A program made the position numbers and the translations under genes. Source: Gemmatimonadaceae bacterium (GTDB lineage Bacteria; Gemmatimonadota; Gemmatimonadetes; Gemmatimonadales; Gemmatimonadaceae). From it: a DNA stretch of 64,000 bases. The stretch is from positions 128,001 through 192,000 of the forward strand of contig JBHYGA010000005.1 of the NCBI GenBank assembly GCA_051859245.1, read 5' to 3'. Of the stretch, positions 3,414 to 33,856 are shown one piece after another. How positions within the stretch are numbered: position 1 is the first letter of the stretch; each line of letters opens with the position of its first letter. The notes beneath the pieces are model-generated. The model saw only the letters and a program-made list of their open reading frames with translations, was not told where the DNA came from and did no database searches.

Positions 3414-3421
3414 CGCAACGC

Positions 3422-4687
3422 CTACAGCTGTGATTTGATCGGTAGCAGGAGTTTTTCAAGCAGTTTTTCGCGCAGCGGCCGGTTTCGCCACATGGCAAGC
3501 GAGTAGGGCTTGGCATTGGCGAGATCGCGCTCGAAGATCAGGAGCATGTCGTGCGCAAACGAATGATCGTACACATTCAGGCTCGCTTCGTCGTTCAGGC
3601 GAAGCGAGCGAATGTCCATGTTGGTGGAGCCCACTGACACAAACTCTTCGTCGATGATCACCAGCTTCACGTGGAGCATGGTGGGTTGGTACACGAAGAT
3701 CTCGACACCCGCTTCCAGCAGTTCGCCCCAGACTTGTTTGCTTGCAATGCGCACCGCGAACGAATCGAGATGCGGCCCTGGCAGCAAAATGCGCACGCGA
3801 ACGTCGCGTTTGCGTGCCGCGAGAAACGCTTCGATCAGCAGGTCGTCGGGCACAAAGTACGACGCGGCAATGTCGATGCGATGTGCCGCCGCGGCGATCG
3901 CGAGCAGGTAGAGCAGGTGCATGCTTTCGCTGCCGCTCGCCGGCGAGGCAATGAACATCTGCGCTTCAAGTGTGCCCACATCGGGAACCGCCGGAAAGAA
4001 CCGGTCGCCATTGAGCACGCGCCCGGTCGATTTGATCCAGTTGTCGTTGAATGCGGCCTGCAACTGCGCCACAACCGGACCTTCCACACGGAAGTGCATG
4101 TCGCGCCATTCGTCGGGTGACGACGCGTCCCCTTGCCACTGGTCCGCAATGCCAACGCCGCCCGTGAACCCCACGCGCCCGTCGACCACCAGCAGCTTGC
4201 GATGCGTCCGGTTGTTCATGCGGCCGAGATTGTACCAATGCAGCGGACGGTATCGATGCACGTGGACGCCGGCGTCTTCCATGGCGTGCAGCAAATCGTT
4301 GTCCATCTTGACGCTGCCCGCCCAGTCCAGCGTGACGTGCACGGGCACACCCGCCCGCGCGCGTTCGCCGAGCGCGTCGCTGAACTTCTGACCGATCTCT
4401 CCGCTCCAGTAAATGTACGTTTCGAACGTGATGGAGCGTTCCGCGCGTTCAATCGCCTGCAGCATGGCCGGGAAAATTTCCGCGCCGTTCTGCAGCGCGC
4501 GCACCTCATTCCCGCCCACGATAGACGGCGACATCATGAGCGACATCTCACGACGGAACTGCGCGTCGGCAATATCGTATCGATGTTCAATTTTTCTTTC
4601 GAGTTTTTTCTCTGCGGTGGCAAAGTTCATGGCCAACGCGGCGAGCAGCAGGGTCACGAGCGCGGTGACGGCGATCGTGACCATCAT
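3422..4687 (-). CDS. cls: cardiolipin synthase (PLD family)
   Basis: Two HKD motifs (THRKLLVVD...GG, LHVKLVIID...GSTNMD) and an N-terminal TM helix. Confidence 0.88.
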   Translation of the reverse strand: MMVTIAVTALVTLLLAALAMNFATAEKKLERKIEHRYDIADAQFRREMSLMMSPSIVGGNEVRALQNGAEIFPAMLQAIERAERSITFETYIYWSGEIGQKFSDALGERARAGVPVHVTLDWAGSVKMDNDLLHAMEDAGVHVHRYRPLHWYNLGRMNNRTHRKLLVVDGRVGFTGGVGIADQWQGDASSPDEWRDMHFRVEGPVVAQLQAAFNDNWIKSTGRVLNGDRFFPAVPDVGTLEAQMFIASPASGSESMHLLYLLAIAAAAHRIDIAASYFVPDDLLIEAFLAARKRDVRVRILLPGPHLDSFAVRIASKQVWGELLEAGVEIFVYQPTMLHVKLVIIDEEFVSVGSTNMDIRSLRLNDEASLNVYDHSFAHDMLLIFERDLANAKPYSLAMWRNRPLREKLLEKLLLPIKSQL

Positions 4688-5817
4688 GGCGCAACGTTGG
4701 CGGTGCTGGGCAGCGTGAAGCGAAAGGTGGTGCCGCGACCGAGCTCGCTCTCCACCGTCACGGTGCCCTGATGCGCTTCGACAAACGTTTTCACGATCGC
4801 GAGCCCAAGACCGAGGCCTCCTTCTTTTTCCGCATCGTGCTCGTGCTTGGTGAAGACGGTTGGCAGTTTGTCGCTCGACATACCGGCGCCGTTATCGCGC
4901 ACGCTGCATTCCACGCTGCCCGCGTCATCAATGGTGCGAGCACTGACGACGATCTCGCCGTTCGGCGTGTAGCTGATCGCGTTGGCGATCAGGTTCTGCA
5001 GGATGCGTTGCAGCAGCCCGGCATCGGCGTGCACGCGTAAATCGTCTGGGACCTCGTTGATCAGCAGCGTTGAGCCGGTGCCGGCCACAGGGTGCAGATC
5101 ATGAATCAACCCTTCCACGAGCGGCCACAGGTAGATGTAGCGTCGCTCAAGCTTGATACCCAGTTCCGTGGCCAGATTCGAGTTCTCAGCGATGACCTTG
5201 GCCACCAGCTTCTGCAGTGTATCCACGCTGCGATTGAGCGCACGAAACATCTGCGCGGTTTGTGGCTGCGCGGCGATCGGTTCGGCCAGCCGCATTTCGA
5301 TCACGCGTGATGAGAGCGCGATGGCGTTGAGCGGTGTGCGCAGATCGTGGGCCACAAAGGCGAGATACTCTTCGCGCCGGGCGAGTACCTGTCGCGCCTG
5401 GTAGGTAGCGAAGGTCGACACTGCGGAGCCAATGGAGCCATCGAACACGCGGTTGAGAACGTGGAACGGCTGGCCTTGCAGCGTGAGGTTGTTTCGATCG
5501 GCGAGGTCGTGAATGCATCCGCGCAGAATGTTGTACTCGGCAACGACTTCCTGAATATCGAAGCCCTCGGAAACGCGCTGCAGGCCGTGGTCGGGCGGGC
5601 TGCCTTCCTCGACGACCTCGGCGATGGTTTCGTCGGTTCCAATGCGCAGGGCCTCGACGAGCTCGCTCAGGAGATCCGGGATGTGGTCATTGAGCGTGGG
5701 CGTGTCGAGATGGCGTGCGGACTCGAGTTCCCGCACCTTGGCACGCCATTCGGTGAGCAGCGCGTCCTTCTCCTGGTCAATGAGCTGGGCGAGCGCACGG
5801 AGCGTCTGGTGGGTCAT
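4684..5817 (-). CDS. cytoplasmic sensor histidine kinase with RsbRD_N-like N-terminal domain
   Basis: AHDLRTPL H-box, NLIANAISYT, DNGAG, GLGLGL; N-terminal HGLQR..GFDIQEVVAEY. Start trimmed to ATG 5817 because the longer ORF overlaps the tRNA. Confidence 0.85.
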   Translation of the reverse strand: MTHQTLRALAQLIDQEKDALLTEWRAKVRELESARHLDTPTLNDHIPDLLSELVEALRIGTDETIAEVVEEGSPPDHGLQRVSEGFDIQEVVAEYNILRGCIHDLADRNNLTLQGQPFHVLNRVFDGSIGSAVSTFATYQARQVLARREEYLAFVAHDLRTPLNAIALSSRVIEMRLAEPIAAQPQTAQMFRALNRSVDTLQKLVAKVIAENSNLATELGIKLERRYIYLWPLVEGLIHDLHPVAGTGSTLLINEVPDDLRVHADAGLLQRILQNLIANAISYTPNGEIVVSARTIDDAGSVECSVRDNGAGMSSDKLPTVFTKHEHDAEKEGGLGLGLAIVKTFVEAHQGTVTVESELGRGTTFRFTLPSTANVAP

Positions 5818-5982
5818 GGCGGGGGCGTCGCGGCGGGTCGTGAGTCGGGGAGGCGGAGCGGAAGGGAAAGCTACTGCCGGTGCCGTGGGGGCGGATACGT
5901 CGCCAATCACGCCAGTTGTTTCCCGGGGGCCACGGTGATATTCTGAGGATCTGTACCATCGCACGGGGTATCCGTGCGTGCC

Positions 5983-6055
5983 GCTCACGTAGCTCAGTCG
6001 GCAGAGCACATCCTTGGTAAGGATGAGGTCACCGGTTCGATCCCGGTCGTGAGCT
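5983..6055 (+). tRNA. tRNA-Thr(GGT), CCA not encoded
   Basis: GCTCACG acceptor pairs with CGTGAGC; TAGCTCAGTCGGCAGAGC D-arm; CATCC-TTGGTAA-GGATG anticodon arm; GGTTCGATCCC T-arm. Confidence 0.97.
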
Positions 6056-6107
6056 CTCGGTGCCTGGGATCTCCCCGGGTGCCGGTCCGAGTGATTTCGC
6101 ACCCCGC

Positions 6108-6136
6108 TTGCGCCGACTTTCCGGCGCCGCTACGTT
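6108..6136 (+). promoter_or_regulatory. candidate sigma70 promoter of rpmG-secE-nusG
   Basis: TTGCGC-N17-TACGTT. Confidence 0.45.
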
Positions 6137-6356
6137 TCAGGGCTCACCCCGTTGCCCTGACCCAACGTGTGTCACAGCGCCAGAATATCGGTGTTGCTGG
6201 CGTCTGGAACGTCTGGATTGGAGTAGCTGTAGGGAGTTCACAATTGCGAAGCGGTCTGGGCCAGACGCCGCACTCACGCACAGGGCGTGGGTGCTCCGCG
6301 CCCAGATCACATCGACCGAACGGCCCCGTGTTGGGCCGCTGTCCGGAGCCGGAACG

Positions 6357-6509
6357 ATGCCGCGCGACAAGATTATTCTCGGTTGCACCGAGTGCAAGAA
6401 TCGCAACTACTTCACGTCCAAGAACAAGCGCCTGCACCCAGAGCGCGTGGAATGGAAGAAGTACTGCCCGCGGTGCAACAAGCACCTCGTGCATAAGGAA
6501 ACGAAGTAA
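6357..6509 (+). CDS. rpmG: 50S ribosomal protein L33 (Zn-binding CxxC form)
   Basis: [18 protein letters not shown]...KKYCPRC..H.ETK. Confidence 0.95.
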
Positions 6510-6511
6510 TC

Positions 6512-6745
6512 ATGGCTACCACCACCGAAGTGGTCGAGCGTCCGGGCCTGGTGCCACGTACGGTTGCGTACTATCGCGACGTCGTGGCCGAAATGAAGAA
6601 GGTCACCTGGCCCGATAAAGATCAGATTCGTCAGATGACGATTCAGATCACGATCTTCGTGCTGGTGATTGGCGCGGTGATTGGCCTGATGGATCTGATG
6701 CTGCAGGGGGCGTTGATTCGCCTTCCGCAGGCGCTGCTTCGCTAA
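6512..6745 (+). CDS. secE: preprotein translocase subunit SecE
   Basis: EMKKVTWP followed by a TM helix; position before nusG. Confidence 0.92.
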   Translation: MATTTEVVERPGLVPRTVAYYRDVVAEMKKVTWPDKDQIRQMTIQITIFVLVIGAVIGLMDLMLQGALIRLPQALLR

Positions 6746-6756
6746 GGGCGGCGGCC

Positions 6757-7302
6757 ATGTTCGAACACCGCTGGTACGCCGTGCAAACCACGTCGGGCCA
6801 CGAGAACAAGGTGCAGCGGCTGTTGCAGCGCAAGATCGACACCGATCCGGCGGAAGCTGAAGCGCGTGCCATCCGGCAGGCGCTCGTGCCCACGCAGGAA
6901 GTGGTGGAAATCAAGAATGGCAAGAAGGTCACGGTCGAGCGCAAGATCTACCCGGGCTACGTGCTCGTGGAGATGGTGCCGTCGCAAGACACGCTGCACG
7001 AAGTGAGTGCGGTGCAGGGCGTGATCAAGTTTGTGGGCAAGGATCGCGATCCCATGCCGCTGCGTGATGATGAAGTCAAGCGGTTGCTTGGCATTGTCGA
7101 CGATGCGGATGCGCGTCCGGCCAAAGAAGAGATTCCGTTCCTTGTGGGTCAGGCGGTACAGATCACCGAGGGACCGTTTGCCGAGTTCAGCGGCTCCGTA
7201 GAAGAAGTGCTGACGGACAAGGGCAAAGTGCGGGTGTCGGTGAGCCTGTTTGGTCGCCCGACATCGGTCGAACTGGATTACCTGCAGCTGCGCGCCTACT
7301 AA
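6757..7302 (+). CDS. nusG: transcription factor NusG
   Basis: WYAVQTTSGHENKV, YPGYVLVEM, KOW motif GPFAEFSG, FGRPTSVEL. Confidence 0.96.
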   Translation: MFEHRWYAVQTTSGHENKVQRLLQRKIDTDPAEAEARAIRQALVPTQEVVEIKNGKKVTVERKIYPGYVLVEMVPSQDTLHEVSAVQGVIKFVGKDRDPMPLRDDEVKRLLGIVDDADARPAKEEIPFLVGQAVQITEGPFAEFSGSVEEVLTDKGKVRVSVSLFGRPTSVELDYLQLRAY

Positions 7303-7423
7303 GCAGCGGCAGGGTCGCACTGGCAACAGTGCGCGCCGGATACCACGACGGCGTTAAACGCAACAGTGGGAGCAAGACCGATGCAGGACATTCCGGCATC
7401 GGACGTTCGCGAGAGGTAGACGG

Positions 7424-7846
7424 ATGGCCAAGAAGGTTACGGGTTTCGTCAAGCTGCAGATTCCTGCAGGCAAGGCGAATCCGGCCCCGCCGGTAGGTAC
7501 GGCTCTCGGTCCGCAGGGCATCAACATCATGTCATTCTGCAAAGAGTTTAACGCTCGCACGCAGGGTGGTGATATGATCGTCCCGGTCGAGGTCACGATC
7601 TACGGCGACAAGTCGTTCACCTTTATCCTCAAGACTCCGCCAGCGGCAGAGCTCTTGAAGAAAGAGGCGGGCGTACCCAAGGGGTCGGGTCAGCCGAACA
7701 AGGTCAAAGTGGGTTCAGTCACGAAGGCTCAGGTCAAGAAGATTGCCGAGCTGAAAATGCCGGACCTGAATACGGAATCACTTGAAAGTGCCATGGCGAT
7801 GGTCGCGGGTGCGGCTCGCTCCATGGGCATCACGGTGACCGACTAA
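7424..7846 (+). CDS. rplK: 50S ribosomal protein L11
   Basis: [20 protein letters not shown]. Confidence 0.97.
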
Positions 7847-8535
7847 TGCGCACCTACGGCAAGAAGTACACGGCCGCGGCCAAGAGCCGCGAGATCGGCG
7901 CCGCGCATGCAGCGGATAAGGCGATCGCCCTCGTGAAGAGCATGGCGTTTGCCAAGTTCGACGAGACGGTCGAGGTCGCAGTGCGCCTCGGCGTGGATCC
8001 GCGTCATGCGGATCAGGTCGTGCGTGGTACCGTGGTGCTCCCCGAGGGAACCGGTAAGACCATGCGCGTGCTCGTCATTGCGACGGGTGCCAAGATCCAG
8101 GAAGCGCAGGACGCAGGGGCCGATTTTGTCGGCACCGAGTTCCTTGCGAAGATCAAGGATGGCTGGTTGGATTTTGATGTCATGATCGCGACCCCGGATC
8201 AGATGGGTCAGATCGGCGCGTTGGGCCGAGTGCTTGGTCCGCGTGGTTTGATGCCAAATCCGAAGGCTGGCACTGTCACGTTCGACGTGGCCAAGGCAGT
8301 CAAAGAATCAAAGGGCGGCAAGATCGAGTTCCGCGTTGACAAGGGCGGCAATGTGCACGCTCCGATCGGCAAGGTCTCGTTTGAAGCTGCTGCGCTGGAG
8401 CGCAACTTTGCAGCGTTCATGGATCAGATTGTGCGATCCAAGCCGAGCGCGGCAAAGGGTGTGTATGTCCGTAACGTCGCGATCTCGAGCTCCATGGGTC
8501 CCGGCGTCACCATCGATACCAATCCGTACCGGTAA
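7846..8535 (+). CDS. rplA: 50S ribosomal protein L1
   Basis: [33 protein letters not shown]. Confidence 0.97.
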
Positions 8536-8549
8536 GGGGCGACGCAACC

Positions 8550-9065
8550 ATGAAGAAATCGAAGAAGACAGAACTCGTTGGTGAGCTGAAGGACAAGCTC
8601 GCCACGGCGAGTGCGGTGTACTACACCGACTTCACCGGGCTGAACGTGAAGCGCATGACGGAACTCCGTCGCCGTTTCCGGAAAGCTGGTGTGGAGTACG
8701 TGGTCATCAAGAACACGCTCGCGCTGCGGGCGGTAAACGAGAGCGGTCTGGTGTCAGAGCGTCTCCGCGGTCCGACAGGACTCGTGGTGACGACCGATCC
8801 GGTCGCCGGCGCCAAGGTGCTGACCGAGTTTGCGAAGGAAAACGACCAGAAGCCGGCCATCAAGGGCGGTGTGTTTGACGGTCGTCGTCTGGATGTCGAC
8901 CAGGTCAAGCAGCTGGCCAATATGCCGTCACGGGAGCAGTTGCTCTCCGAGCTGGCCGGAACCCTGCAGGCCCCGATGGCGGGCATGCTCGGTGCCATGA
9001 ATGCGCTCTTTACCAACTTCGCTGGCGCGCTCGACGCGCTCAAGCAGCAGAAGGAAGCTGCCTGA
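8550..9065 (+). CDS. rplJ: 50S ribosomal protein L10
   Basis: VIKNTLA, LANMPSREQLL; synteny. Confidence 0.95.
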   Translation: MKKSKKTELVGELKDKLATASAVYYTDFTGLNVKRMTELRRRFRKAGVEYVVIKNTLALRAVNESGLVSERLRGPTGLVVTTDPVAGAKVLTEFAKENDQKPAIKGGVFDGRRLDVDQVKQLANMPSREQLLSELAGTLQAPMAGMLGAMNALFTNFAGALDALKQQKEAA

Positions 9066-9131
9066 ATCCCCCAGGCGTACGCCTGAACAACGCCCCAGGA
9101 ACACCTGGGAGATTACTGAGGAGATAGTACC

Positions 9132-9518
9132 ATGGCGAACACCACGCTGAGCAAGGACGAAATTCTCGACGCAATCGGCAACATGTCGGTTTTCGAGCTG
9201 TCCGAAATGATTGAAGCGTTCAAGGAGAAGTTCAACGTCACCATCGCAGTGGCCGCCCCGGCTGCCGCTGCGGCTGCGCCGGCTGCTGCCGCCGCGGTTG
9301 AGGAGCAGACTGAGTTCGAAGTCATCCTCAAGGAAGCGGGCGCCAAGAAGATCCAGGTCATCAAGGTGGTTCGCGAAATCACCGGCCTGGGCCTGAAGGA
9401 AGCCAAGGACCTGGTGGATGGCGCTCCGAAGAGCGTGAAGGAAAATGTGTCGAAGGATGAAGCCGCACAGCTGAAGGCCAAGCTCGAAGCTGAAGGCGCG
9501 TCGGTCGAAGTCAAGTAA
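9132..9518 (+). CDS. rplL: 50S ribosomal protein L7/L12
   Basis: Ala-rich hinge, [19 protein letters not shown]. Confidence 0.97.
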
Positions 9519-9532
9519 GGTTCCGAACTCGT

Positions 9533-9575
9533 GGGCGGTACCACTCCGGTGCCGCCCCGGGTTCTGGTTCTTCAC
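9533..9575 (+). terminator. hairpin after rplL (weak terminator or attenuator before rpoB)
   Basis: GGGCGGTACC-actcc-GGTGCCGCCC followed by an imperfect T-rich tail. Confidence 0.45.
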
Positions 9576-9761
9576 TTGACCCTCGACCATCGTGATCCTG
9601 TCCGCACGTACGTCAAAATTTCGTAGTTTCGCTCCCTCCCGGTCCGCACGGCGTTCGCCGTTTTGCGCATCGGGAGCGGAGCGTTTCGTGTCCCTGATTA
9701 CCGCGTCGCGTTCGGCGGCGTTCGGCATCGGGATTCGACCCGTCGGTGAGCCCTTGACGCC

Positions 9762-14315
<4,554 letters not shown>

Positions 14316-23575: not shown

Positions 23576-23980
23576 ATGCCAACGATTAACCAGCTCGTCC
23601 GCAAGGCGCGCAAGGACGTCAAGCGCACTGACAAGGCGCCGGCCCTCAAGGCCAATCCGTTCAAGCGTGGCGTCTGTACGCGTGTGTACACCACCACGCC
23701 CAAGAAGCCCAACTCGGCGCTTCGCAAAGTCGCCCGTGTGCGCCTTACCAACCAGTTTGAAGTCACCGCCTACATCCCGGGTGAAGGACACAACCTGCAG
23801 GAGCATTCGATTGTGCTCGTGCGCGGTGGTCGTGTGAAGGACCTTCCGGGTGTGCGCTACCACATCGTGCGCGGCTCCCTCGACGCATCGGGCGTCAACG
23901 GTCGTAACCAGAGCCGCTCCAAGTACGGGACCAAGCGTCCAAAGCCCGGCCAGCCCGCGGCAGGAGCTAAGAAGAAGTGA
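23576..23980 (+). CDS. rpsL: 30S ribosomal protein S12
   Basis: [23 protein letters not shown]. Confidence 0.98.
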
Positions 23981-24447
23981 GCCGCCGCAAAAGTTCAGTC
24001 AAGCGCGTGATTCTGCCCGACGCACGCTACGATAGCCAGACCGTCAGCAAGTTCATCAACTCGCTGATGCAGGACGGCAAGAAGTCCACCGCCGAAGGCA
24101 TTTTCTACAAGGCCATGGACACGGTCGAGAACAAGACCAGCCAGCCCGGCGTCACCGTTTTCAAGCAGGCACTCAACAACCTCAAGCCGGTTGTCGAAGT
24201 GAAGAGCCGCCGCGTTGGTGGTGCCACGTACCAGGTGCCCGTCGAAGTCCGTCAGGATCGTCGTACGGCCCTCGCGATGCGTTGGCTCATCAGCTACTCG
24301 CGCGACCGTAACGAAAAGTCGATGGACGAGAAGCTGGCCGCCGAAGTGCTCGCCGCCGCGCGTGGTGAAGGCAACGCCATCAAGAAGAAGGAAGACACGC
24401 ACCGCATGGCCGAAGCCAACAAGGCCTTCGCGCACTATCGCTGGTAA
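23977..24447 (+). CDS. rpsG: 30S ribosomal protein S7
   Basis: [27 protein letters not shown]. Confidence 0.98.
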
Positions 24448-24465
24448 GCAGTTTTCCGCTCGATC

Positions 24466-24501
24466 AAACGCGCCCCGGTCCACTGGATCGGGGCGCGTTT
24501 T
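24466..24501 (+). terminator. intrinsic terminator after rpsG
   Basis: AAACGCGCCCCGGTCC-act-GGATCGGGGCGCGTTTT. Confidence 0.8.
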
Positions 24502-24695
24502 GCATTCGTGCCACAAGCCATCGGGCGGCGGAACAACGGGTCGCGATTGCTCAGTTCGGACCAGCCGCGTGACGAAAGCGACACCCAGCGTGTGCTTCCG
24601 TGACCGCGGAAAAATGACCTCGTCTGCTCTCTGAGCACCACGTTTTCATCACTCGCGCTGCGGCTGCGCAACCGCCCCACAGGGCACGCGCACCG

Positions 24696-24788
24696 CGGTC
24701 ACGACAACGGCAAACCCGTCGAAAGGCGGGGACGCAAAGCCACGAGGCTACCGCACGCTCCGCGTGCCACGCCAGTCGGGTTACCGAA
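24696..24788 (+). ncRNA. cyclic di-GMP-I (GEMM-I) riboswitch
   Basis: CGGTCAC..GGCAAACCCGTC-GAAA-GGCGGGGACGCAAAGCCACGAGGCTAC...CAGTCGGGTTACCG, with GNRA tetraloop, receptor stem and P1. Ends 8 nt before the GAGG RBS. Confidence 0.9.
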
Positions 24789-24808
24789 CGACCCCGAGGT
24801 CTGCGCGC

Positions 24809-25648
24809 ATGTTTCGCCCCACACGTGTTCTTGGCACCATGGCCGTCGTGAGTACGCTGCTCGGTTGTCAGAGCGGTGATCTCACGTCGCCGTTCGACGC
24901 GTCTGAACGTCAGGTGCCCATCACCGCCGCGGCGACTTCCGATAACGCGCGTCGTTTCAGGATTCCCACGCTGCCCGTTGACTCCGCCTCGGACGACCGT
25001 GGCAATACGGGATTCCTCGTACCGGTGCGCGCGACGGGCTTCGCGCTGACTCCAATCGCGTTCGGATCGACCGCCACGGGATCGTGCCTGCAGGAAGGCA
25101 GCCGGTTCGGCGAATGGACGGTGCGGTACCACGGCTACGGTTGTGTTTCGCTTGAGCAGACATCAGGTACTGTGGCGCTGGCCATGGAGCCCACATCGGC
25201 GCTCAGCTTTGCGGCCACGCACGCGCCGCTCACGGTTGGTCCGCAACATACCGATCGATTTGTGCTTAGCACCGACATTGAAACGGTGCGCCAGACGCGC
25301 GTCGGCAGCGCGCCAAACCCGTGGGAAGTCGCGTGGGTGATCTGGCAGTTCACCGACGACGAGCACTTCTACTATTTCATTCCCAAGCCCGATGGCTGGG
25401 AGCTCGGGAAGCGCGACCCGGCATATCCGGGTGGTCAGCGCTTTCTGGCCACGGGTACGCAGCGCGTGTTTCCCATTGGCCAGGTCTACCGGGTGGAAGT
25501 GCAGCAGCGCGGTACGCTCATGAGCGTGTCGGTTGATGGGGTGGAGATTGTGCAGTTTCGCGACACGGAGCGCCCCTATCGCGCCGGTCGCTTTGCGCTC
25601 TATTCGGAAGACGCCGCCATCCGCGTGCACGAGGTTTCGAGCCTGTAA
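24809..25648 (+). CDS. lipoprotein with ConA/lectin-like (DUF1080-like) beta-sandwich domain
   Basis: Lipobox LLGC; PNPWEVAWVIW.FTD.EHFYYF..KP.GWELGK.DP.YPGGQRFL; SVDG...D..RPY..G...LYSED. Confidence 0.7.
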   Translation: MFRPTRVLGTMAVVSTLLGCQSGDLTSPFDASERQVPITAAATSDNARRFRIPTLPVDSASDDRGNTGFLVPVRATGFALTPIAFGSTATGSCLQEGSRFGEWTVRYHGYGCVSLEQTSGTVALAMEPTSALSFAATHAPLTVGPQHTDRFVLSTDIETVRQTRVGSAPNPWEVAWVIWQFTDDEHFYYFIPKPDGWELGKRDPAYPGGQRFLATGTQRVFPIGQVYRVEVQQRGTLMSVSVDGVEIVQFRDTERPYRAGRFALYSEDAAIRVHEVSSL

Positions 25649-25836
25649 CCGCCGGGGCTACACCGCAGTCGTTTGCCCCTGCCGCGCGTGACGCGCCGCG
25701 CCGCGAGCGTGACCCAACGAACCAGAGCCTCGTCGTAAGGACAGCAGGACGATGTCCAGTCCTGTAACACCGTCCTTCGGCGAACTCAGTGCTAGCGAGC
25801 GCTAGCATGACGCCGACCGTTCTCCTACGTTGCGCC

Positions 25837-27198
25837 ATGCCCGTCGCTCATCAAAATCGTGACGTTCGTCACGCGCATCGTTCGCTGACGCTCCTCGTGT
25901 GGCGCGCACTGCTGGCGACGGCGTTGGTGGTGATGGCGCCATCATTCCGCGCGGTGTCGGCACAGACGCCCGCAACGAGTCAGGATTCGATCTTCAACGC
26001 CGCGATGAATCGTGCGTACGACGCACTGCGCGCCGGCGATTCAACAGCCGCGATCTCCGGATTTCGTGAAGCACTGCGACGCGATCCGTCGTCGGCGACC
26101 GCGCACTTTCAATTGGGTTACATACTGCTCGCGTTGGGACGGCGAGAAGACGCAGCGACCGAGTTTGAAGAAGGACTGGCGCGCGATTTTTCGCAGGAGG
26201 CACCACGTCGACAGCTTGGATATTTGTACGCAGATCTCGGCAGGCACCGCGACGCATTGCGCGTCTTCACGGGATTGCGTGACGATCAGAAAGCGATTCC
26301 GCGCGATTACGTCGCGATCGGCAACCTGTCGTCCATGTTGCGTGATCGTGCCGGAGCAGAGACTGCGTTCCGTGCCGCGATCGCCACGGGCGATACCAGC
26401 ATCTTCACGGATGCACGCCGCGGATTGCAGGGCGTGTCGCAAACCGGTGTTGGAGCTGGCTGGTTTGGTGAGTTGTATGCCGCGCCATTCTATCAGGATC
26501 GGTTTGACAACACCGTCGGACTTGGCTTCGCGCGCGCTGGCGTTCGCGGGGGCGGATGGTGGCGACCTGCGCTCTACGCATCGCTCCGTGTCACACGTGA
26601 TTCGCGCTCAACCGGCGGTCAGCAGCCCGTGTTGTTCAATGACAATACGCTGATTCCGGCGGTTGGTGTACGTGTGTCGCCCGGTGGCGTTGGACTCGCT
26701 CTCTACGCGGAAGCGGGCGCTGCGTATGATCTCGTTGGCGAACCGCGTGAGTGGACGCGCGATTTGCGCGCGGGCGCTAACTATGCGTTTGCGCATGAGC
26801 AGTCATTGCGCGACGGACGCGCGCCGCTGGTGATCACCGAGTTCTCGGCTGACGCCTCGTTTTACGAGCGATTTGATCGCAACGTGATTGCCTACGCGCA
26901 ACTGCGCGAATCCTTGCGGTTGTACAAGGGCAATCACGTGGCGTTCGATGTGTTTGGCCGAGCGTGGGGCGCGACAGACTCACGTGGTGAGTTTTTCAAT
27001 CGTGTGATCGAAGGTGGCGGCGGTGCGGCGTTGCATCTCAGCGTGGGCACCGTTCGTACGAGCGTGTACGTGGATGTACTGCGTGGCCGATACGTGCAAG
27101 CACCACCAGCGGCGTCGTCGCTGCCGCGCACGTATGACGACTGGCGCGTGACCATCGCGACTGGTCTGTTCCGCTTTCTGCCATTCGATCGCCCATGA
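25837..27198 (+). CDS. secreted TPR protein with C-terminal beta-barrel-like domain (NfrA-like export pore candidate)
   Basis: Signal peptide ending VSAQ, several TPRs (AHFQLGYILLALG, RRQLGYLY), amphipathic aromatic beta strands. Start uncertain (25807 or 25837). Confidence 0.65.
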   Translation: MPVAHQNRDVRHAHRSLTLLVWRALLATALVVMAPSFRAVSAQTPATSQDSIFNAAMNRAYDALRAGDSTAAISGFREALRRDPSSATAHFQLGYILLALGRREDAATEFEEGLARDFSQEAPRRQLGYLYADLGRHRDALRVFTGLRDDQKAIPRDYVAIGNLSSMLRDRAGAETAFRAAIATGDTSIFTDARRGLQGVSQTGVGAGWFGELYAAPFYQDRFDNTVGLGFARAGVRGGGWWRPALYASLRVTRDSRSTGGQQPVLFNDNTLIPAVGVRVSPGGVGLALYAEAGAAYDLVGEPREWTRDLRAGANYAFAHEQSLRDGRAPLVITEFSADASFYERFDRNVIAYAQLRESLRLYKGNHVAFDVFGRAWGATDSRGEFFNRVIEGGGGAALHLSVGTVRTSVYVDVLRGRYVQAPPAASSLPRTYDDWRVTIATGLFRFLPFDRP

Positions 27199-28740
27199 GC
27201 TTCCTCGACTGGTTCGTAGTTGTCATCGCTGTCTGCTACATAATTTTTGCGATTGACGACCTCATCTTTGATGCGACGTACTGGTTCGGCAAACTCATGG
27301 GGCTGGTGGGAACGTCCGCGCGTGCGACAGGCGGATCTTGACGCCGTTCCGCAAAAGAAAATCGCGTGGGTCATTCCGGCCTGGAGTGAAGACGAAGTCA
27401 TTGCCGGCATGCTCACGTACAATCTCGGACGTATTGACTACGACCGGTACGACGTGTGGGTTGGCACGTATCAGAACGATCCGGCGACGCAGCAGGAAGT
27501 GGCGAAGGTGGCGCAGTTTTCTCCGCGCGTGCGTTGGGTGGTCACGGATCACGACGGGCCTACGTCAAAAGCCGATTGCATGAACAACATCGTGGCGGGA
27601 TTGCAGCGCCACGAGTTGGCCACTGGCGAGCAATACGATCTGATCGTGATGCACGATCCAGAAGACATCATTCATCCGCTCGAGTTCAAACTCACCAACT
27701 GGTACTTCAGCACCGAAGAAGCGGATTTTGTGCAGCTGCCCGTGCTGTCCACGTCGCCCAAGTGGTATGACTTTGTGGCCGGCACGTACATCGATGAGTT
27801 CTCGGAGATGTACGCCAAGAACATGTACGTGCGTCAGCGGCTCACGCCGTTTGTGCCGAGTGCCGGCGTGGCGACCACGATGCGTCGCAGCGCGCTTGAG
27901 GAACTGATCGATGAAACCGGTGGGCTGCCCTACGCCGTAAACTCACTCACCGAGGATTACGACCTCGGTTTGAAAATGGCGATCGCGGATCGTCGGACGA
28001 AGTTCCTGTCGCAAAAAATCGAGGTGACGGACGAGGACGGCAAGACGCGGGAGGAGCTGGTGGCCACGTGGGCCCCGTTCCCCCACACGTTTGACACGGC
28101 GGTGCGTCAGCGGACGCGCTGGATGTCAGGCATCGTGTTTCAGGCCTGGGAGCACTGGAAGTGGCCCGGGACGCTGGGCCTCAAATGGGTGCTGGCGCAC
28201 GATCGCCGTGGGCCGTTTGGCTACCTCGTGGTGCTCTTTGGTTACCTGCTGGTCCTTGCGCTCGTGTCTTACGAGTGGGTGCGCACGTTCTACGACCCCA
28301 CGCTGCCCAAAGTGCTCCAGCATCCGGCATTCACGACGCTGTTCTTTATCGGCATCTTCTTCTTCGTCAATCGACTGTTGCAACGCGCAATCGCTGTGCA
28401 TCGCTTCTACGGTCTCGGACAGGCTCTTCTGGCCATATTCCGCACGCCGTTCAGCAACCTGGTCAACATGGTCGCGTCATTCCGTGCCGCGTGGCGCTAC
28501 TGGTACAGCCAGGCCACTGGCAAACCGATGACGTGGGACAAAACCTCGCACGCGATTCCTCCGGTGATCGCGCGGTCGTTGCGCATTGGTGAGCGACTGG
28601 TGCTGGCCGGAAAAATTACGCCGCAACAGTTGATGCTCGCACTTGGTGCGCAGCGCCAGCGTCCGCGTCCGATTGGCGAGATTCTGGTTTCGCAGGGCGC
28701 GATTACCAGCAGCGAACTGCGCGCCGAGCTGGGAGCCTGA
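27195..28740 (+). pseudogene. nfrB: NfrB-like GT2 glycosyltransferase with C-terminal MshEN domain, interrupted by a +1 frameshift near 27299-27302
   Basis: Frame 1 (27195-27341) gives MSFLDWFVVVIAVCYIIFAIDDLIFDATYW, the NfrB-type TM/DDLxxD segment. Frame 2 gives IPAWSEDEVI, GPTSKADCMN, HDPED, PSAGV, LTEDYDLG, RQRTRW, W.KT.H and tandem MshEN RIGERLV..G.IT..QL..AL..Q. Confidence 0.8.
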
Positions 28741-28741
28741 C

Positions 28742-29944
28742 ATGCCATTCGGCAAACAGCGCCGTACGTCAGCCAGCGTGCAGGTTTCGCGCGTTAAAGC
28801 ACCGGCGCGTATTGCGGTCGTTGTCGGCACGCGTCCTGAAGCGATCAAACTGGCGCCGGTGATTCGTGAGTTGCGCCGTCGTCCCGGTGCATTTGAATGT
28901 CGGGTGATTGCCACGTCGCAGCACCGCGAGTTGCTGGTGCAGGCATTGGCCGAGTTTGATATTGCGGCCGATCGCGATCTGGATCTGATGGAGCCCGGTC
29001 AATCACTCGGGCGTTTCGCGGCGCGCTGTCTGGAGTCGATGTCAAAGGCGCTCGTGCAGGAACAGCCGGATCTCGTGATGGTGCAGGGTGACACCACCAC
29101 TGTTGTTGCGGCCGCGATGGCCGCCGCCTATCAGAGCATTCCAGTTGCGCACGTGGAAGCGGGACTGCGTTCACACGATGTGAACAATCCGTTTCCCGAA
29201 GAGATGAATCGCAAAATCGCGGCTGCCGTTGCCGCGGTGCATTTCGCGCCCACGCCGCTTGCTCGACGCAACTTGTTGGACGAAGGCGTGGCCGCCGACC
29301 GTGTGGTGCTGAGCGGCAACACCGTGGTTGACGCGGTGCATGCACTCGACTTGTCGAACGCGTTACCGGCAGCGCTGCGCGATCTCGATCCCGAGCGCAC
29401 AATTGTGCTCACCACACATCGTCGAGAAAATCACGGTACGCCGCTCGCGCGCGTATGCGAAGCGGTGCGTCAACTAGTGCGCGATCGTCCGCATTTGCAG
29501 ATCGTATTTCCGGTGCATCCGAATCCGATGGTGGGCGCCGTGGTGCGCTCAGCGCTCGGCGGGTTGCCGCAGGTGCGGTTGATCGAGCCGCTCGCGTATC
29601 GGCCCATGCTGGCACTGTTGTCGCGCTGCAAGCTCATCCTGACGGACTCCGGTGGCATTCAGGAAGAGGCGCCGAGTCTGGGCAAGCCCGTGCTCATTTT
29701 GCGTGAGGTCACGGAGCGTCCGGAGGTGGTGTCGGCGGGCGCGGGTCGGCTGGTGGGTACGGACTCGGCGGATATCGTGAGCGCCGTGTCGCGTTTGCTC
29801 GATGATCCGGCCGAGTATGCGCGCATGGCGTCGGCCCGGAATCCGTTTGGCGATGGCCGAGCGTCGGTGCACATTGCCGACTGGCTGGAGACATTCCTGC
29901 TGGGGCGGAAGTTCACCCCATCGCACGTGGCGGCGCTGGCGTAA
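28742..29944 (+). CDS. wecB: UDP-N-acetylglucosamine 2-epimerase (non-hydrolysing)
   Basis: GTRPEAIKLAP, QGDTTT, HVEAGLRS, PFPEEMNR, TDSGGIQEEAP, NPFGDG. Confidence 0.93.
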   Translation: MPFGKQRRTSASVQVSRVKAPARIAVVVGTRPEAIKLAPVIRELRRRPGAFECRVIATSQHRELLVQALAEFDIAADRDLDLMEPGQSLGRFAARCLESMSKALVQEQPDLVMVQGDTTTVVAAAMAAAYQSIPVAHVEAGLRSHDVNNPFPEEMNRKIAAAVAAVHFAPTPLARRNLLDEGVAADRVVLSGNTVVDAVHALDLSNALPAALRDLDPERTIVLTTHRRENHGTPLARVCEAVRQLVRDRPHLQIVFPVHPNPMVGAVVRSALGGLPQVRLIEPLAYRPMLALLSRCKLILTDSGGIQEEAPSLGKPVLILREVTERPEVVSAGAGRLVGTDSADIVSAVSRLLDDPAEYARMASARNPFGDGRASVHIADWLETFLLGRKFTPSHVAALA

Positions 29945-30157
29945 GGACGCGCTCGGCGGGTTGTGACCGGCCGGTTGTCGCAGGCTCGGCCTCGCCGAGC
30001 GCCCGAGCTATTGATATCCAACGCGTCGCGTTGGCACCGCGTACCCGTTGTGGTCGCGCAACAGCATGCGGTGGCGATTCCACGCTACCTGTGGCATGTT
30101 GGACACAAAATGGCGGGCTGGACCCTCAGAACGGCGCCGAATGGCTGGGCTCGCCAT

Positions 30158-30174
30158 TCGGCACGGGTTGTGCA
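30158..30174 (+). promoter_or_regulatory. candidate sigma54 (-24/-12) promoter of the PEP-CTERM gene
   Basis: tcGGCACgggttgtGCa, GG-N10-GC spacing. PEP-CTERM genes commonly have sigma54 promoters. Confidence 0.55.
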
Positions 30175-30233
30175 CTAGATCACAAGTGAGAGGGTTCCGC
30201 TGTTCGTGGATGTCTTCAATACATGAGTTGGCT

Positions 30234-30962
30234 ATGTCATTTCGACGGATTTCTCAGTTGATTGTGGGTTCGGCGCTGGTGCTCGCGGTGCTGCCGGGCG
30301 TGTCACAGGCGCAGACGATCGTGACGTTCGATCCCGCAGCGCTAGGCTACGAAGGCGATTGCGAAGACAACGATCTCTGGGGCGGCGCTAACACGGCGAT
30401 TGGCGCTCACGCCGGCATGTTCTTCGGCGGCATTCACGCGCTGGACGTGCAGCATTATCAGAGCGATTGCTGGGGCGATAATCCGCCGGTCAACGGTTAC
30501 CTGGCAGCCGGTGAACCACTGGCGCCAATCCTTGGCCTGCTTCGCGCGCCAGGGTTCATCCAAAAGCAAGGCGGAGAGCTGTTCAACTTGCTGAGCATGG
30601 ACGTTGGGTCAGGCTGGACTGATGTGCGTCTGACCTTTCGCGGCTATAACGGCTGGGCCGACCAGAAGCTCAAACCGATTTATGAGACGTATTTTGATGT
30701 TGAGCCTTCGGGCCTGACGACTCTTGATTTCAATGGATGGTTCGGCGTACGGTATGTGGAGGTTGATTACACGTTCGGCAACAACGATCCGTACGGCATC
30801 GCTGAGCGAAGCGGCGAACCTGTCTATCAGACGTCGTTCATCGCCGGACTGACCGTAGACAACTACACCGAGCCTGTAGTCGTGCCGGAGCCCGGTTCGC
30901 TGGCGCTGCTCGGTCTTGGCCTGATCGGACTCGGTGCCGCCGCGCGTCGTCGCAAGGCCTGA
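30234..30962 (+). CDS. PEP-CTERM sorting domain surface protein
   Basis: Signal peptide (SQAQ); C-terminal VPEPGSLALLGLGLIGLGAAARRRKA. Confidence 0.92.
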   Translation: MSFRRISQLIVGSALVLAVLPGVSQAQTIVTFDPAALGYEGDCEDNDLWGGANTAIGAHAGMFFGGIHALDVQHYQSDCWGDNPPVNGYLAAGEPLAPILGLLRAPGFIQKQGGELFNLLSMDVGSGWTDVRLTFRGYNGWADQKLKPIYETYFDVEPSGLTTLDFNGWFGVRYVEVDYTFGNNDPYGIAERSGEPVYQTSFIAGLTVDNYTEPVVVPEPGSLALLGLGLIGLGAAARRRKA

Positions 30963-30987: not shown

Positions 30988-31024
30988 CGGGCCCCCACGC
31001 CAGGCGTGGGGGCCCGTTCTATTT
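30988..31024 (+). terminator. intrinsic terminator
   Basis: CGGGCCCCCACGC..GCGTGGGGGCCCG followed by TTCTATTT. Confidence 0.75.
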
Positions 31025-31030
31025 CCTGCG

Positions 31031-31267
31031 GTTGCAGTTCCTGATTCGGTCATTCGGCCCAGTGGCGGGAGCCCAGGGCCATTTGGCCATTCGGCCTCTA
31101 ACTCTCGAAAGGCCGCACGGAACGTACGTCCCGCCCTGAAATCCTGGCCGCGAGCGGAGGGCTCACATCAGCATCTGTTCCCGGTGCCAATGTACGAAAC
31201 TGCGAGGCCAAAAGGCCAAATGGCCCTGGGCTCCCGCCACTGGGCCGAATGACCGAATCAGACTGCA
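31031..31267. repeat. long inverted-repeat element, family C (MITE/REPIN-like)
   Basis: ~65-bp arms GTTGCAGTTCCTGATTCGGTCATTCGGCCCAGTGGCGGGAGCCCAGGGCCATTTGGCCATTCGGCCTC and its reverse complement; second copy at 56445. Confidence 0.88.
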
Positions 31268-31735
31268 TTTTGGAGCGAGTCTGCCTATTGACTTGCCACG
31301 AGATATAGACGATTATAGGTGGCTGCGCGGATCTTTGGCCAAAAGCCTCAACTGCGCACATGCTGGCGACCTGCAGCCAGCCCTATGGGCCCACGCTTGC
31401 GTGGGGGGTGAGTTCCACAGGCAAGACACCGCCACGGACTCAATGCCGTTCCGGACTGTTCGCGTGATGCAAACAGTCTCCCGACAAAGAACGCAGGCAA
31501 TTTGACGTCGCTCGTGACATTCGGGGTTCCCGCAAGGGGCAACAATGATGCGAGAGGCGCGCTTGGGTCCCCACGCGTGTTACAGCAGCGCGATGCACCC
31601 GGCGGCCGCGGATGGATACCGGTCTCACGTGAGTGGGGCGTCCGGTCCAGCCGTTTTTGTTTTTGCTGTTTCCCGAGTTTCTGATATTGACCTTCGCTGG
31701 CGCGTGCATTCGCGCGTGACTCCGAGAGCTAAAGC

Positions 31736-33856
<2,121 letters not shown>

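Follow-up and report, generated by a model that had tools for sequence, protein, structure and literature searches.

We analysed a 64,000-nt stretch of a Gemmatimonadaceae genome (GenBank contig JBHYGA010000005.1, positions 128,001 to 192,000, forward strand; hereafter the window), in which five co-oriented genes headed by a cyclic di-GMP (c-di-GMP) riboswitch are inserted between rpsG (end, 24447) and fusA (start, 31736). These genes encode a lipoprotein, a tetratricopeptide repeat (TPR)/beta-barrel protein, a family 2 glycosyltransferase (GT2, hereafter GT), WecB and a PEP-CTERM protein. In our judgement, the cassette rather probably represents a minimal, lineage-specific Nfr-type synthase-dependent exporter, in which c-di-GMP acts on two components, residing in a slot where cassettes are swapped. 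In E. coli, the Nfr glycan (NGR) system comprises NfrB, NfrA and YbcH with WecB (PMC8669469, PMC8669472; here and below, statements from PMC-numbered papers refer to the portions of them available to us).

The cassette is conserved in Gemmatimonadaceae at the rpsG-fusA position, and every core locus with sufficient sequence retains the order riboswitch-lipoprotein-barrel-GT-wecB. An initial annotation of this DNA had proposed an NfrAB-WecB system under double c-di-GMP control, and all the features that it listed, as well as their co-orientation, were recovered by Rfam, open reading frame (ORF) and profile analyses. Its Nfr-type reading stands for the synthase, the pore, wecB, the riboswitch and the lipoprotein partner, but not for the double control, the inclusion of the PEP-CTERM gene in the unit, the MshEN placement as a distinction or an intact window copy.

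An NfrB-family synthase ending in an MshEN_N module

The GT matched NfrB-type profiles with E values of 1e-108 to 1e-122 and shares 39% identity with E. coli NfrB, with the DxD (27652), TED (27949) and QxxRW (28108) motifs all aligned and two transmembrane helices in the main ORF. Two results weigh against a canonical assignment. The protein lies under every NfrB/PRK14716 NCBIfam cut-off (362 vs 1170 bits for NF008411, 407 vs 537 and 377 vs 409), and in quick trees, which had no outgroup and included no PRK14716 members, it forms its own well-supported clade apart from canonical NfrB, the nearest enzymes coming from Blastocatellia and from one further Gemmatimonadaceae locus. The expected grouping with NfrB is thus borne out for the family, by profiles, but not for the canonical clade. 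The PRK14716 proteins (NF011304-NF011307, ~440-500 aa; best match 377 bits) are likewise short and NfrB-like, but the alignment to them stops around residue 442, short of the MshEN region, whereas the cassette GT keeps a bare MshEN_N.

The last 55 residues of the GT form one MshEN_N module of two 24-residue halves joined by a 5-residue linker, scoring 47.1 bits against NF053729 (cut-off 38) and matching V. cholerae MshE (5htl) with an E value of 0.003. The protein described initially as a GT2 with tandem MshEN is therefore an NfrB-family GT2 with a single MshEN_N made of two half-motifs. The two glycines of the motif and its core hydrophobic residues are kept in the window and in 29/30 short tails, the exception being a cut non-core sequence, and the glycines equivalent to G11/G40 and the leucines equivalent to L25/L29 are invariant across the core rows. 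Since the motif of E. coli NfrB sits at the same aligned place, the only difference in the MshEN region is the tail behind the motif, which is absent from the cassette GT; the position straight after the transmembrane region was correctly described but does not set this protein apart.

Several NfrB-like loci outside the core set were also recorded. In a metagenomic clade (L029, L031-L039, L041), a GT with a full MshEN domain, itself preceded by wecB where the contig extends far enough, lies ahead of the same small barrel, with neither lipoprotein nor riboswitch in the fetched DNA. A Rheinheimera genome (L075) carries two tandem NfrB-like genes around a single nfrA. In NfrB-like loci of two Blastocatellia genomes, c-di-AMP riboswitches lie 3' of the GT (L067, 8434-8603; L068, 10075-10247), and these GTs carry a decayed MshEN motif.

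A miniature relative of NfrA as the probable outer-membrane partner

The TPR protein has a signal peptide, and its AlphaFold2 (AF2) model shows about four TPRs and a 12-strand beta-barrel with a pLDDT of 91, so that the barrel fold anticipated earlier was obtained. When the barrel profile was widened with 145 further barrels, hhalign matched it to the NfrA C-terminal profile with P 95.7% and an E value of 1e-8 over 150 columns, and NfrA tails scored a median of 9.9 bits, compared to -1.2 for reversed controls. Before widening, the narrower profile reached a P of 13% only, and the profile of the whole protein matched E. coli NfrA through the TPRs alone (P 38%). Structural searches gave BcsC as the top Foldseek match (E 2e-12) with a poor global fit (TM-score 0.28), a wide list filled by TPR matches, and an NfrA_C cluster as the top ESM Atlas match of the barrel (0.93), which is weak by the tool's own marks.

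Three observations speak against a relationship to NfrA: none of the 30 barrel members examined matched Pfam NfrA_C, none of 146 members reached 25 bits with the NfrA hidden Markov model, and the 12 strands modelled here differ from the 16 modelled for NfrA (PMC8669472 section 5). Judged from the profile comparison, the protein is nevertheless a miniature, remote NfrA homolog, in agreement with the NfrA-related pore proposed initially. It belongs to a barrel family of 650 clusters at 50% identity.

A lectin-fold lipoprotein instead of YbcH

The first gene of the cassette encodes a protein with an LLGC lipobox (Cys20) and a disordered tether, followed by a ConA-like beta-sandwich in the AF2 model. 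Its best Foldseek match is CBM66 (E 1.4e-9, TM-score 0.76 by target). When the lipoprotein profile was compared with PDB sequences, no match had an E value under 0.3. The lipoprotein profile is unrelated to YbcH (P 0.3%), and YbcH itself had no tblastn match in the genome at an E value of 1e-3. The lipoprotein and the GT occur in the identical 6 of 401 genomes of the phylum, consistent with the earlier proposal that the lipoprotein is an extra partner of the system. A variant locus with another gene order (L073) has the lipoprotein gene adjoining the barrel gene and further holds an NfrB-like GT without MshEN, wecB and a BcsB-like gene.

We also considered, as a less probable alternative, that the lipoprotein is an enzyme, a DUF1080-type hydrolase or lyase that trims or clears the polymer, rather than a passive lectin. 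The domain is related to DUF1080/PF06439 (3-keto-disaccharide hydrolase), which was detected on many of the homologs, and the alignment contains 36 invariant columns, several of them acidic and aromatic. The window protein, however, falls under the Pfam cut-off (14 vs 26.8 bits), and in structure it comes closest to CBM66 modules, which are non-catalytic. Moreover, the domain serves as an accessory module in multidomain proteins, and it is fused to GH18 in 3/34 longer homologs. We treat the protein as a predicted glycan-binding lipoprotein.

Predicted c-di-GMP control of the cassette

Infernal/Rfam identified the c-di-GMP-I riboswitch reported in the initial annotation (RF01051) at 24699-24788 with 81.3 bits, compared to a gathering score of 35. 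We aligned 30 riboswitch rows: the window, 27 of 28 riboswitches from lipoprotein loci and two of the five first relatives. The bases at 24709, 24736 and 24784, which we take to be G20, A47 and C92 by Vc2 numbering, are invariant in all 30. G20 versus A20 tells c-di-GMP from cGAMP riboswitches (PMC6140456), and because G20 is invariant throughout, the predicted ligand is c-di-GMP rather than cGAMP. The same base rules out c-AMP-GMP specificity (GEMM-Ib, A20). In the structural alignment, 91% of cells are paired and 10 of 27 pairs change on both sides, counts that are inflated by kinship and affected by misaligned columns in distal P3.

By Rfam, the cassette riboswitch is an ordinary member of its family, and what distinguishes it is its company: our literature searches turned up no other c-di-GMP-I riboswitch tied to an Nfr-type locus. 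It lies 5' of the lipoprotein gene in 28/29 lipoprotein-bearing loci (all but L073) and accompanies 6/6 Nfr-type slots and 0/37 others. A family-trained model that found 11/11 positive controls detected no such riboswitch in 78 other NfrB-family loci, and neither did Rfam in 12 of these. RF01051 exceeds its cut-off in 123/151 genomes of the family, three unpublished genomes included; with such riboswitches this common in the family, the one at the Nfr-type locus looks to have been recruited locally.

The terminator scan found none behind the aptamer. An SD-like (Shine-Dalgarno-like) GAGG lies at 24796-24799, ahead of the ATG at 24809, about 20 nt past the aptamer, and a short hairpin over this element (24790..24811) competes with P1. 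When the aptamer fold was enforced, the SD-like element became more open in 17/30 rows and less open in 3/30. Together, these data suggest that the riboswitch directly controls translation of the lipoprotein gene, presumably as an ON switch. Further downstream, a -10-like hexamer precedes the TPR gene in 29/29 regions. Because there is no terminator, the start codon is only ~20 nt away and the TPR gene may have its own -10 element, direct RNA control is evident for the lipoprotein only. Two points weigh against this reading: the folding test is biased to opening, as the enforced pairs remove competitors, and the excess of -10-like hexamers is weak (45 observed vs 35 ± 5 in shuffles, z ~2).

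Double control of one pathway, as originally proposed, is accordingly not what emerged, although it is possible. Such control would require one mRNA from the riboswitch to wecB, with polarity from the lipoprotein gene, so that c-di-GMP sets both the amount and the activity of the synthase; we consider this conceivable but doubtful. The conserved gene order and the tie to Nfr-type slots are in keeping with it, as is the terminator scan, which called nothing between the genes on the plus strand save weak matches inside ORFs. On the other hand, the lipoprotein and TPR genes are separated by 190 nt with the positionally recurring -10-like hexamer, and in L016 by ~2.2 kb of other genes, and the aptamer is not followed by an intrinsic terminator. 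The available portion of PMC6200980 holds no precedent for joint riboswitch and MshEN control.

At the protein level, c-di-GMP binding by the bare MshEN_N of the GT is plausible, because isolated MshEN_N binds c-di-GMP at 0.35 uM (PMC5013675). It counts against binding that every row has Pro or Gln in place of the second-half Arg of the motif. With MshEN_C lost and the terminal Gln missing as well, with one first-half Gly replaced by Arg, Lys or Asn in the sister genus and with the motif decayed or lost in sister clades (L025, L027, L028, L067, L068, L073), one could suppose a remnant that no longer binds, leaving the riboswitch as the sole c-di-GMP input; this is quite improbable given the invariant G11/G40 and L25/L29 equivalents, the NF053729 score above cut-off and the case of E. 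coli NfrB, whose motif deviates from the MshEN consensus in our alignment and which nonetheless binds c-di-GMP (PMC8669469). The genome contains 11 GGDEF matches.

A second c-di-GMP-I riboswitch was found in the same genome (G000:C5:263528-263617, minus strand; L163, 8504-8623). It heads a gene for a 675-aa lipoprotein that matches GH39 weakly; a flippase-like gene comes next, and the set faces glycosyltransferases and an O-antigen-ligase-like gene, making this another polysaccharide locus led by a riboswitch and a lipoprotein.

A frameshift in the window copy of the synthase gene

The close coupling of the TPR, GT and wecB genes noted initially is present as an ATGA overlap at 27195-27198 and a 1-nt gap (28740/28742), but the ATG at 27195, overlapping the TPR stop, opens a frame of only 48 codons. 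This piece matches positions 4-36 of the NfrB-family profile, and the remainder, from position 43, continues in the +1 frame in the ORF at 27247-28740. Alignment with nine close relatives placed a single 1-nt gap at 27297-27301 in all of them, corresponding to one extra base in the window. The GT N-terminus is in one open frame in 32/32 core loci, which include near-duplicates and some single genomes reached by two routes, and in the five first-fetched relatives. A programmed frameshift was ruled out, as the extra base is absent in the relatives.

We regard the break as likely biological, and the knockout of the window synthase is probably recent, with a GT dN/dS of 0.015 relative to the nearest relative. 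A sequencing or assembly error that hides an intact cassette is an unlikely explanation, to which several facts nevertheless lend some weight: the site sits in a short homopolymer, the frameshift is the sole coding indel relative to the nearest relative over the aligned stretch, and the dN/dS indicates strong selection on the GT. In run X1, the only run covering the site, a contig of depth 23 reproduces the window letters across the frameshift, gap-free and with no alternative letters listed, which argues against an error; X1 may, however, be the source run of the assembly and thus not independent, a point that tells against a real frameshift. Run X2 holds fragments of a relative that leave the site uncovered, and the locus is absent from run X4. 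Further evidence against an error is that the assembly looks short-read, since 14/22 contig ends fall in a 240-bp repeat, and that one clear and two doubtful frameshifts were seen among 305 matched ORFs elsewhere in the genome, by a crude count that includes shadow ORFs. Inactivated nfrB alleles have, moreover, been reported in E. coli (PMC8669472).

The wecB gene, the PEP-CTERM gene and the cassette layout

WecB scored 444 bits against TIGR00236 (cut-off 210) and is the sole PF02350 match in the genome, which supports its proposed role as the UDP-GlcNAc 2-epimerase partner. According to PMC8669469 (section 11), nfrB has its own adjacent wecB when the genome has no other copy; the sole, GT-adjacent wecB fits this rule. 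The system had been called self-contained, and it does possess its own wecB, but the run sits inside the rpsG-fusA slot and the wecB linkage is published (PMC8669469).

The PEP-CTERM protein (PF07589, 33.1 vs 20.7 bits) has a poorly conserved body (27-30% identity). Of 16 relatives in which a PEP-CTERM gene was detected, 15 share the sigma-54-like motif ahead of it, the background rate being 0.021 per kb per strand. Sigma-54 sites at PEP-CTERM/exosortase genes have been described in Proteobacteria (PMC1569441), and the gene here resembles those genes in being a single gene near exopolysaccharide genes with a long upstream spacer and a -24/-12 motif, while differing in its host, a member of Gemmatimonadota. 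PEP-CTERM genes are present in all three cassette types of the slot. The gene had been counted as part of the unit; with its own sigma-54-like site and its occurrence in the other cassette types, it is probably transcribed separately, as a neighbour with a putative promoter of its own.

Upstream, the hairpin past rpsG (Table 1) folds at -31.9 kcal/mol over 24455-24510 and was not called by the terminator scan; comparable hairpins lie 3' of rpsG in relatives.

Table 1. Positions of the cassette features and flanking genes in the window
Feature	Position	Strand	Basis
rpsG, left flank of slot	23977..24447	+	ORF; same flank in relatives
GC-rich hairpin past rpsG, likely terminator parting the cassette from rpsL-rpsG	24466..24501	+	Fold
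c-di-GMP-I (GEMM-I) riboswitch aptamer with extended P1	24697..24793	+	RF01051, covariation
Putative translational expression platform, hairpin over SD-like GAGG	24790..24811	+	Folds; presumed ON direction
Lectin-fold lipoprotein, 279 aa, lipobox Cys20	24809..25648	+	AF2, Foldseek, homologs
-10-like hexamer 5 nt 5' of TPR-gene ATG, possible internal promoter	25826..25831	+	Suggestive only
Miniature NfrA-like outer-membrane protein, 453 aa	25837..27198	+	Pfam TPR, AF2, hhalign
N-terminal piece of NfrB-like GT (first transmembrane helix, DD motif)	27195..27341	+	Frame ends after 48 codons
+1 frameshift site, one extra base in short G run	27297..27301	+	Alignment to relatives
Main ORF of NfrB-like GT2, homologous from ~27302	27247..28740	+	Profiles, E. 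coli NfrB alignment
MshEN_N motif, C-terminal end of GT	28582..28737	+	NF053729, 5htl match, conservation
wecB, UDP-GlcNAc 2-epimerase	28742..29944	+	TIGR00236
Sigma-54-like -24/-12 site ahead of PEP-CTERM gene	30158..30174	+	Motif scan, relatives
PEP-CTERM surface protein, 242 aa	30234..30962	+	PF07589
Terminator-like hairpin	30988..31016	+	Terminator scan/fold
fusA, right flank of slot	31736..33856	+	ORF; same flank in relatives

Probable exchange of cassettes in the rpsG-fusA slot

DNA behind rpsG was obtained from 40 of the 58 rpsG-matching genomes of a sister genus (g9); of the remaining 18, six had been obtained beforehand and 12 were left out, mostly with rpsG near a contig end. Under strict thresholds, the 40 slots comprised 5 Nfr-type, 22 GT2-wecB-type, 7 BcsA-like and 6 unassigned ones, and none held two types. 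The second type (L183 in G067, 1248-11323, and 21 similar loci) consists of a reverse-strand set of wecB, a membrane protein, a 427-aa GT2 and a bactofilin-like gene, with a YaiO barrel block added in 6/22; our literature search found no paper on this cassette. Of two BcsA-like slots examined, one has a PilZ match and the other BcsC. The window genome contains none of the genes of the other two types, and a genome of the same genus (G341) carries a second-type gene at the slot position.

An rpsG tree was labelled for 46 rows, three of them on weaker evidence. The types are interspersed on it and require 10 changes, compared to a minimum of 2; when only strongly supported branches are counted, two of the types still need at least 4. 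Repeated replacement of cassettes in the slot is the simplest reading of this pattern. The tree weighs against it in being short (468 nt, with 20/46 forks open), and so does the chance that rpsG itself recombines with the cassette. By analogy with E. coli, where phage N4 exploits the Nfr system, phage pressure may plausibly drive the swapping.

Other features at or near this site were also recorded. In L188 (G538), rpsG is immediately followed by a prophage-like stretch with an amidase, a YqaJ recombinase and a small PEP-CTERM gene. Window positions 31030-31270 are occupied by a 240-bp element that has long inverted repeats at its ends, resembles miniature inverted-repeat transposable or repetitive extragenic palindromic (MITE/REP-like) elements and is present at about 35 places in the genome. 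The fusA gene has its own promoter-like site (31288-31316) and a leader (~31500-31735) whose non-coding blocks are conserved in relatives with and without the cassette; this leader had no Rfam match and may be a leader RNA, as yet undescribed, of the split str operon. Elsewhere in the window, positions 601-800 and 5983-6055 hold a cobalamin riboswitch and a tRNA, respectively.

Discussion

Like the E. coli Nfr system, the cassette combines an NfrB-family GT2 whose MshEN motif directly follows the transmembrane helices, a TPR and beta-barrel outer-membrane partner with detectable homology, and a WecB that is adjacent as the published rule demands. Unlike that system, its GT is ~515 aa long and ends at MshEN_N (NfrB, 745 aa), its barrel protein has 453 aa (NfrA, 990 aa), a lectin-fold lipoprotein is found where YbcH is missing, and the barrel gene precedes the GT instead of following the nfrB-nfrA-ybcH order. 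Furthermore, it carries a c-di-GMP-I riboswitch and no adjacent diguanylate cyclase, and it is located in an exchangeable slot of Gemmatimonadaceae. Because length, YbcH and gene order all depart from the E. coli arrangement, the cassette is not a canonical Nfr member.

Alternative glycan gene sets between conserved flanks are familiar from the galF-gnd O-antigen and dexB-aliA capsule loci. The rpsG-fusA slot is similar to these in that mutually exclusive glycan sets occupy one site and are interspersed among close relatives, and different in that whole synthase-dependent secretion systems are swapped, inside the str ribosomal-protein cluster.

Based on these comparisons, we propose the following model. 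WecB, a known enzyme, supplies UDP-ManNAc, from which the short NfrB-like GT2 would polymerise and translocate a ManNAc-containing glycan. Binding of c-di-GMP to the C-terminal MshEN_N would turn the synthase on, by analogy with E. coli NfrB and V. cholerae MshE, and the small TPR/barrel protein would pass the chain across the outer membrane. The lectin-fold lipoprotein may take the part of YbcH by binding the chain and guiding or anchoring it, and the riboswitch would turn on translation of the lipoprotein. In this way, c-di-GMP would act twice on different components, on the lipoprotein at the RNA level and on the synthase at the protein level. The cassette is one of at least three polysaccharide systems that take each other's place in this slot of the family, and their exchange would proceed by recombination within the conserved flanks, plausibly under phage pressure. 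A bolder version seems to us rather unlikely: that phages drive the swapping of whole export machines at a "glycan serotype" locus, that the cassette is the smallest self-sufficient NGR-like machine, with the riboswitch governing the whole operon in addition to MshEN, and that the frameshift is a phage-escape knockout.

The core Nfr pathway and the nfrB-wecB linkage are already known. The miniature NfrA and NfrB, the lectin lipoprotein replacing YbcH, the clade-only riboswitch and the swap slot are apparently new: the claim that the arrangement is undescribed holds insofar as we found no paper on it in a search that left most subscription journals uncovered, and supplements and figures (PMC8669469 Fig. 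7, PMC8669472 Fig. S5) could list Gemmatimonadota, while the nfrB-wecB linkage lies outside that claim, having been published (PMC8669469).

With this cassette, Nfr-type exporters reach a phylum that the survey of PMC8669469 (section 11) does not name, and a large barrel family so far without a name is connected to NfrA. The chemistry of the NGR has been left uncharacterised (PMC10211494), and this small version of three or four genes, WecB included, would be a handy system for its reconstitution, with the predicted glycan-binding lipoprotein as a possible affinity probe. Both the minimal machine and the swap slot can be put to the test, and the slot provides a natural comparison of three surface-glycan systems among close genomes of a poorly studied phylum of soil and freshwater bacteria.

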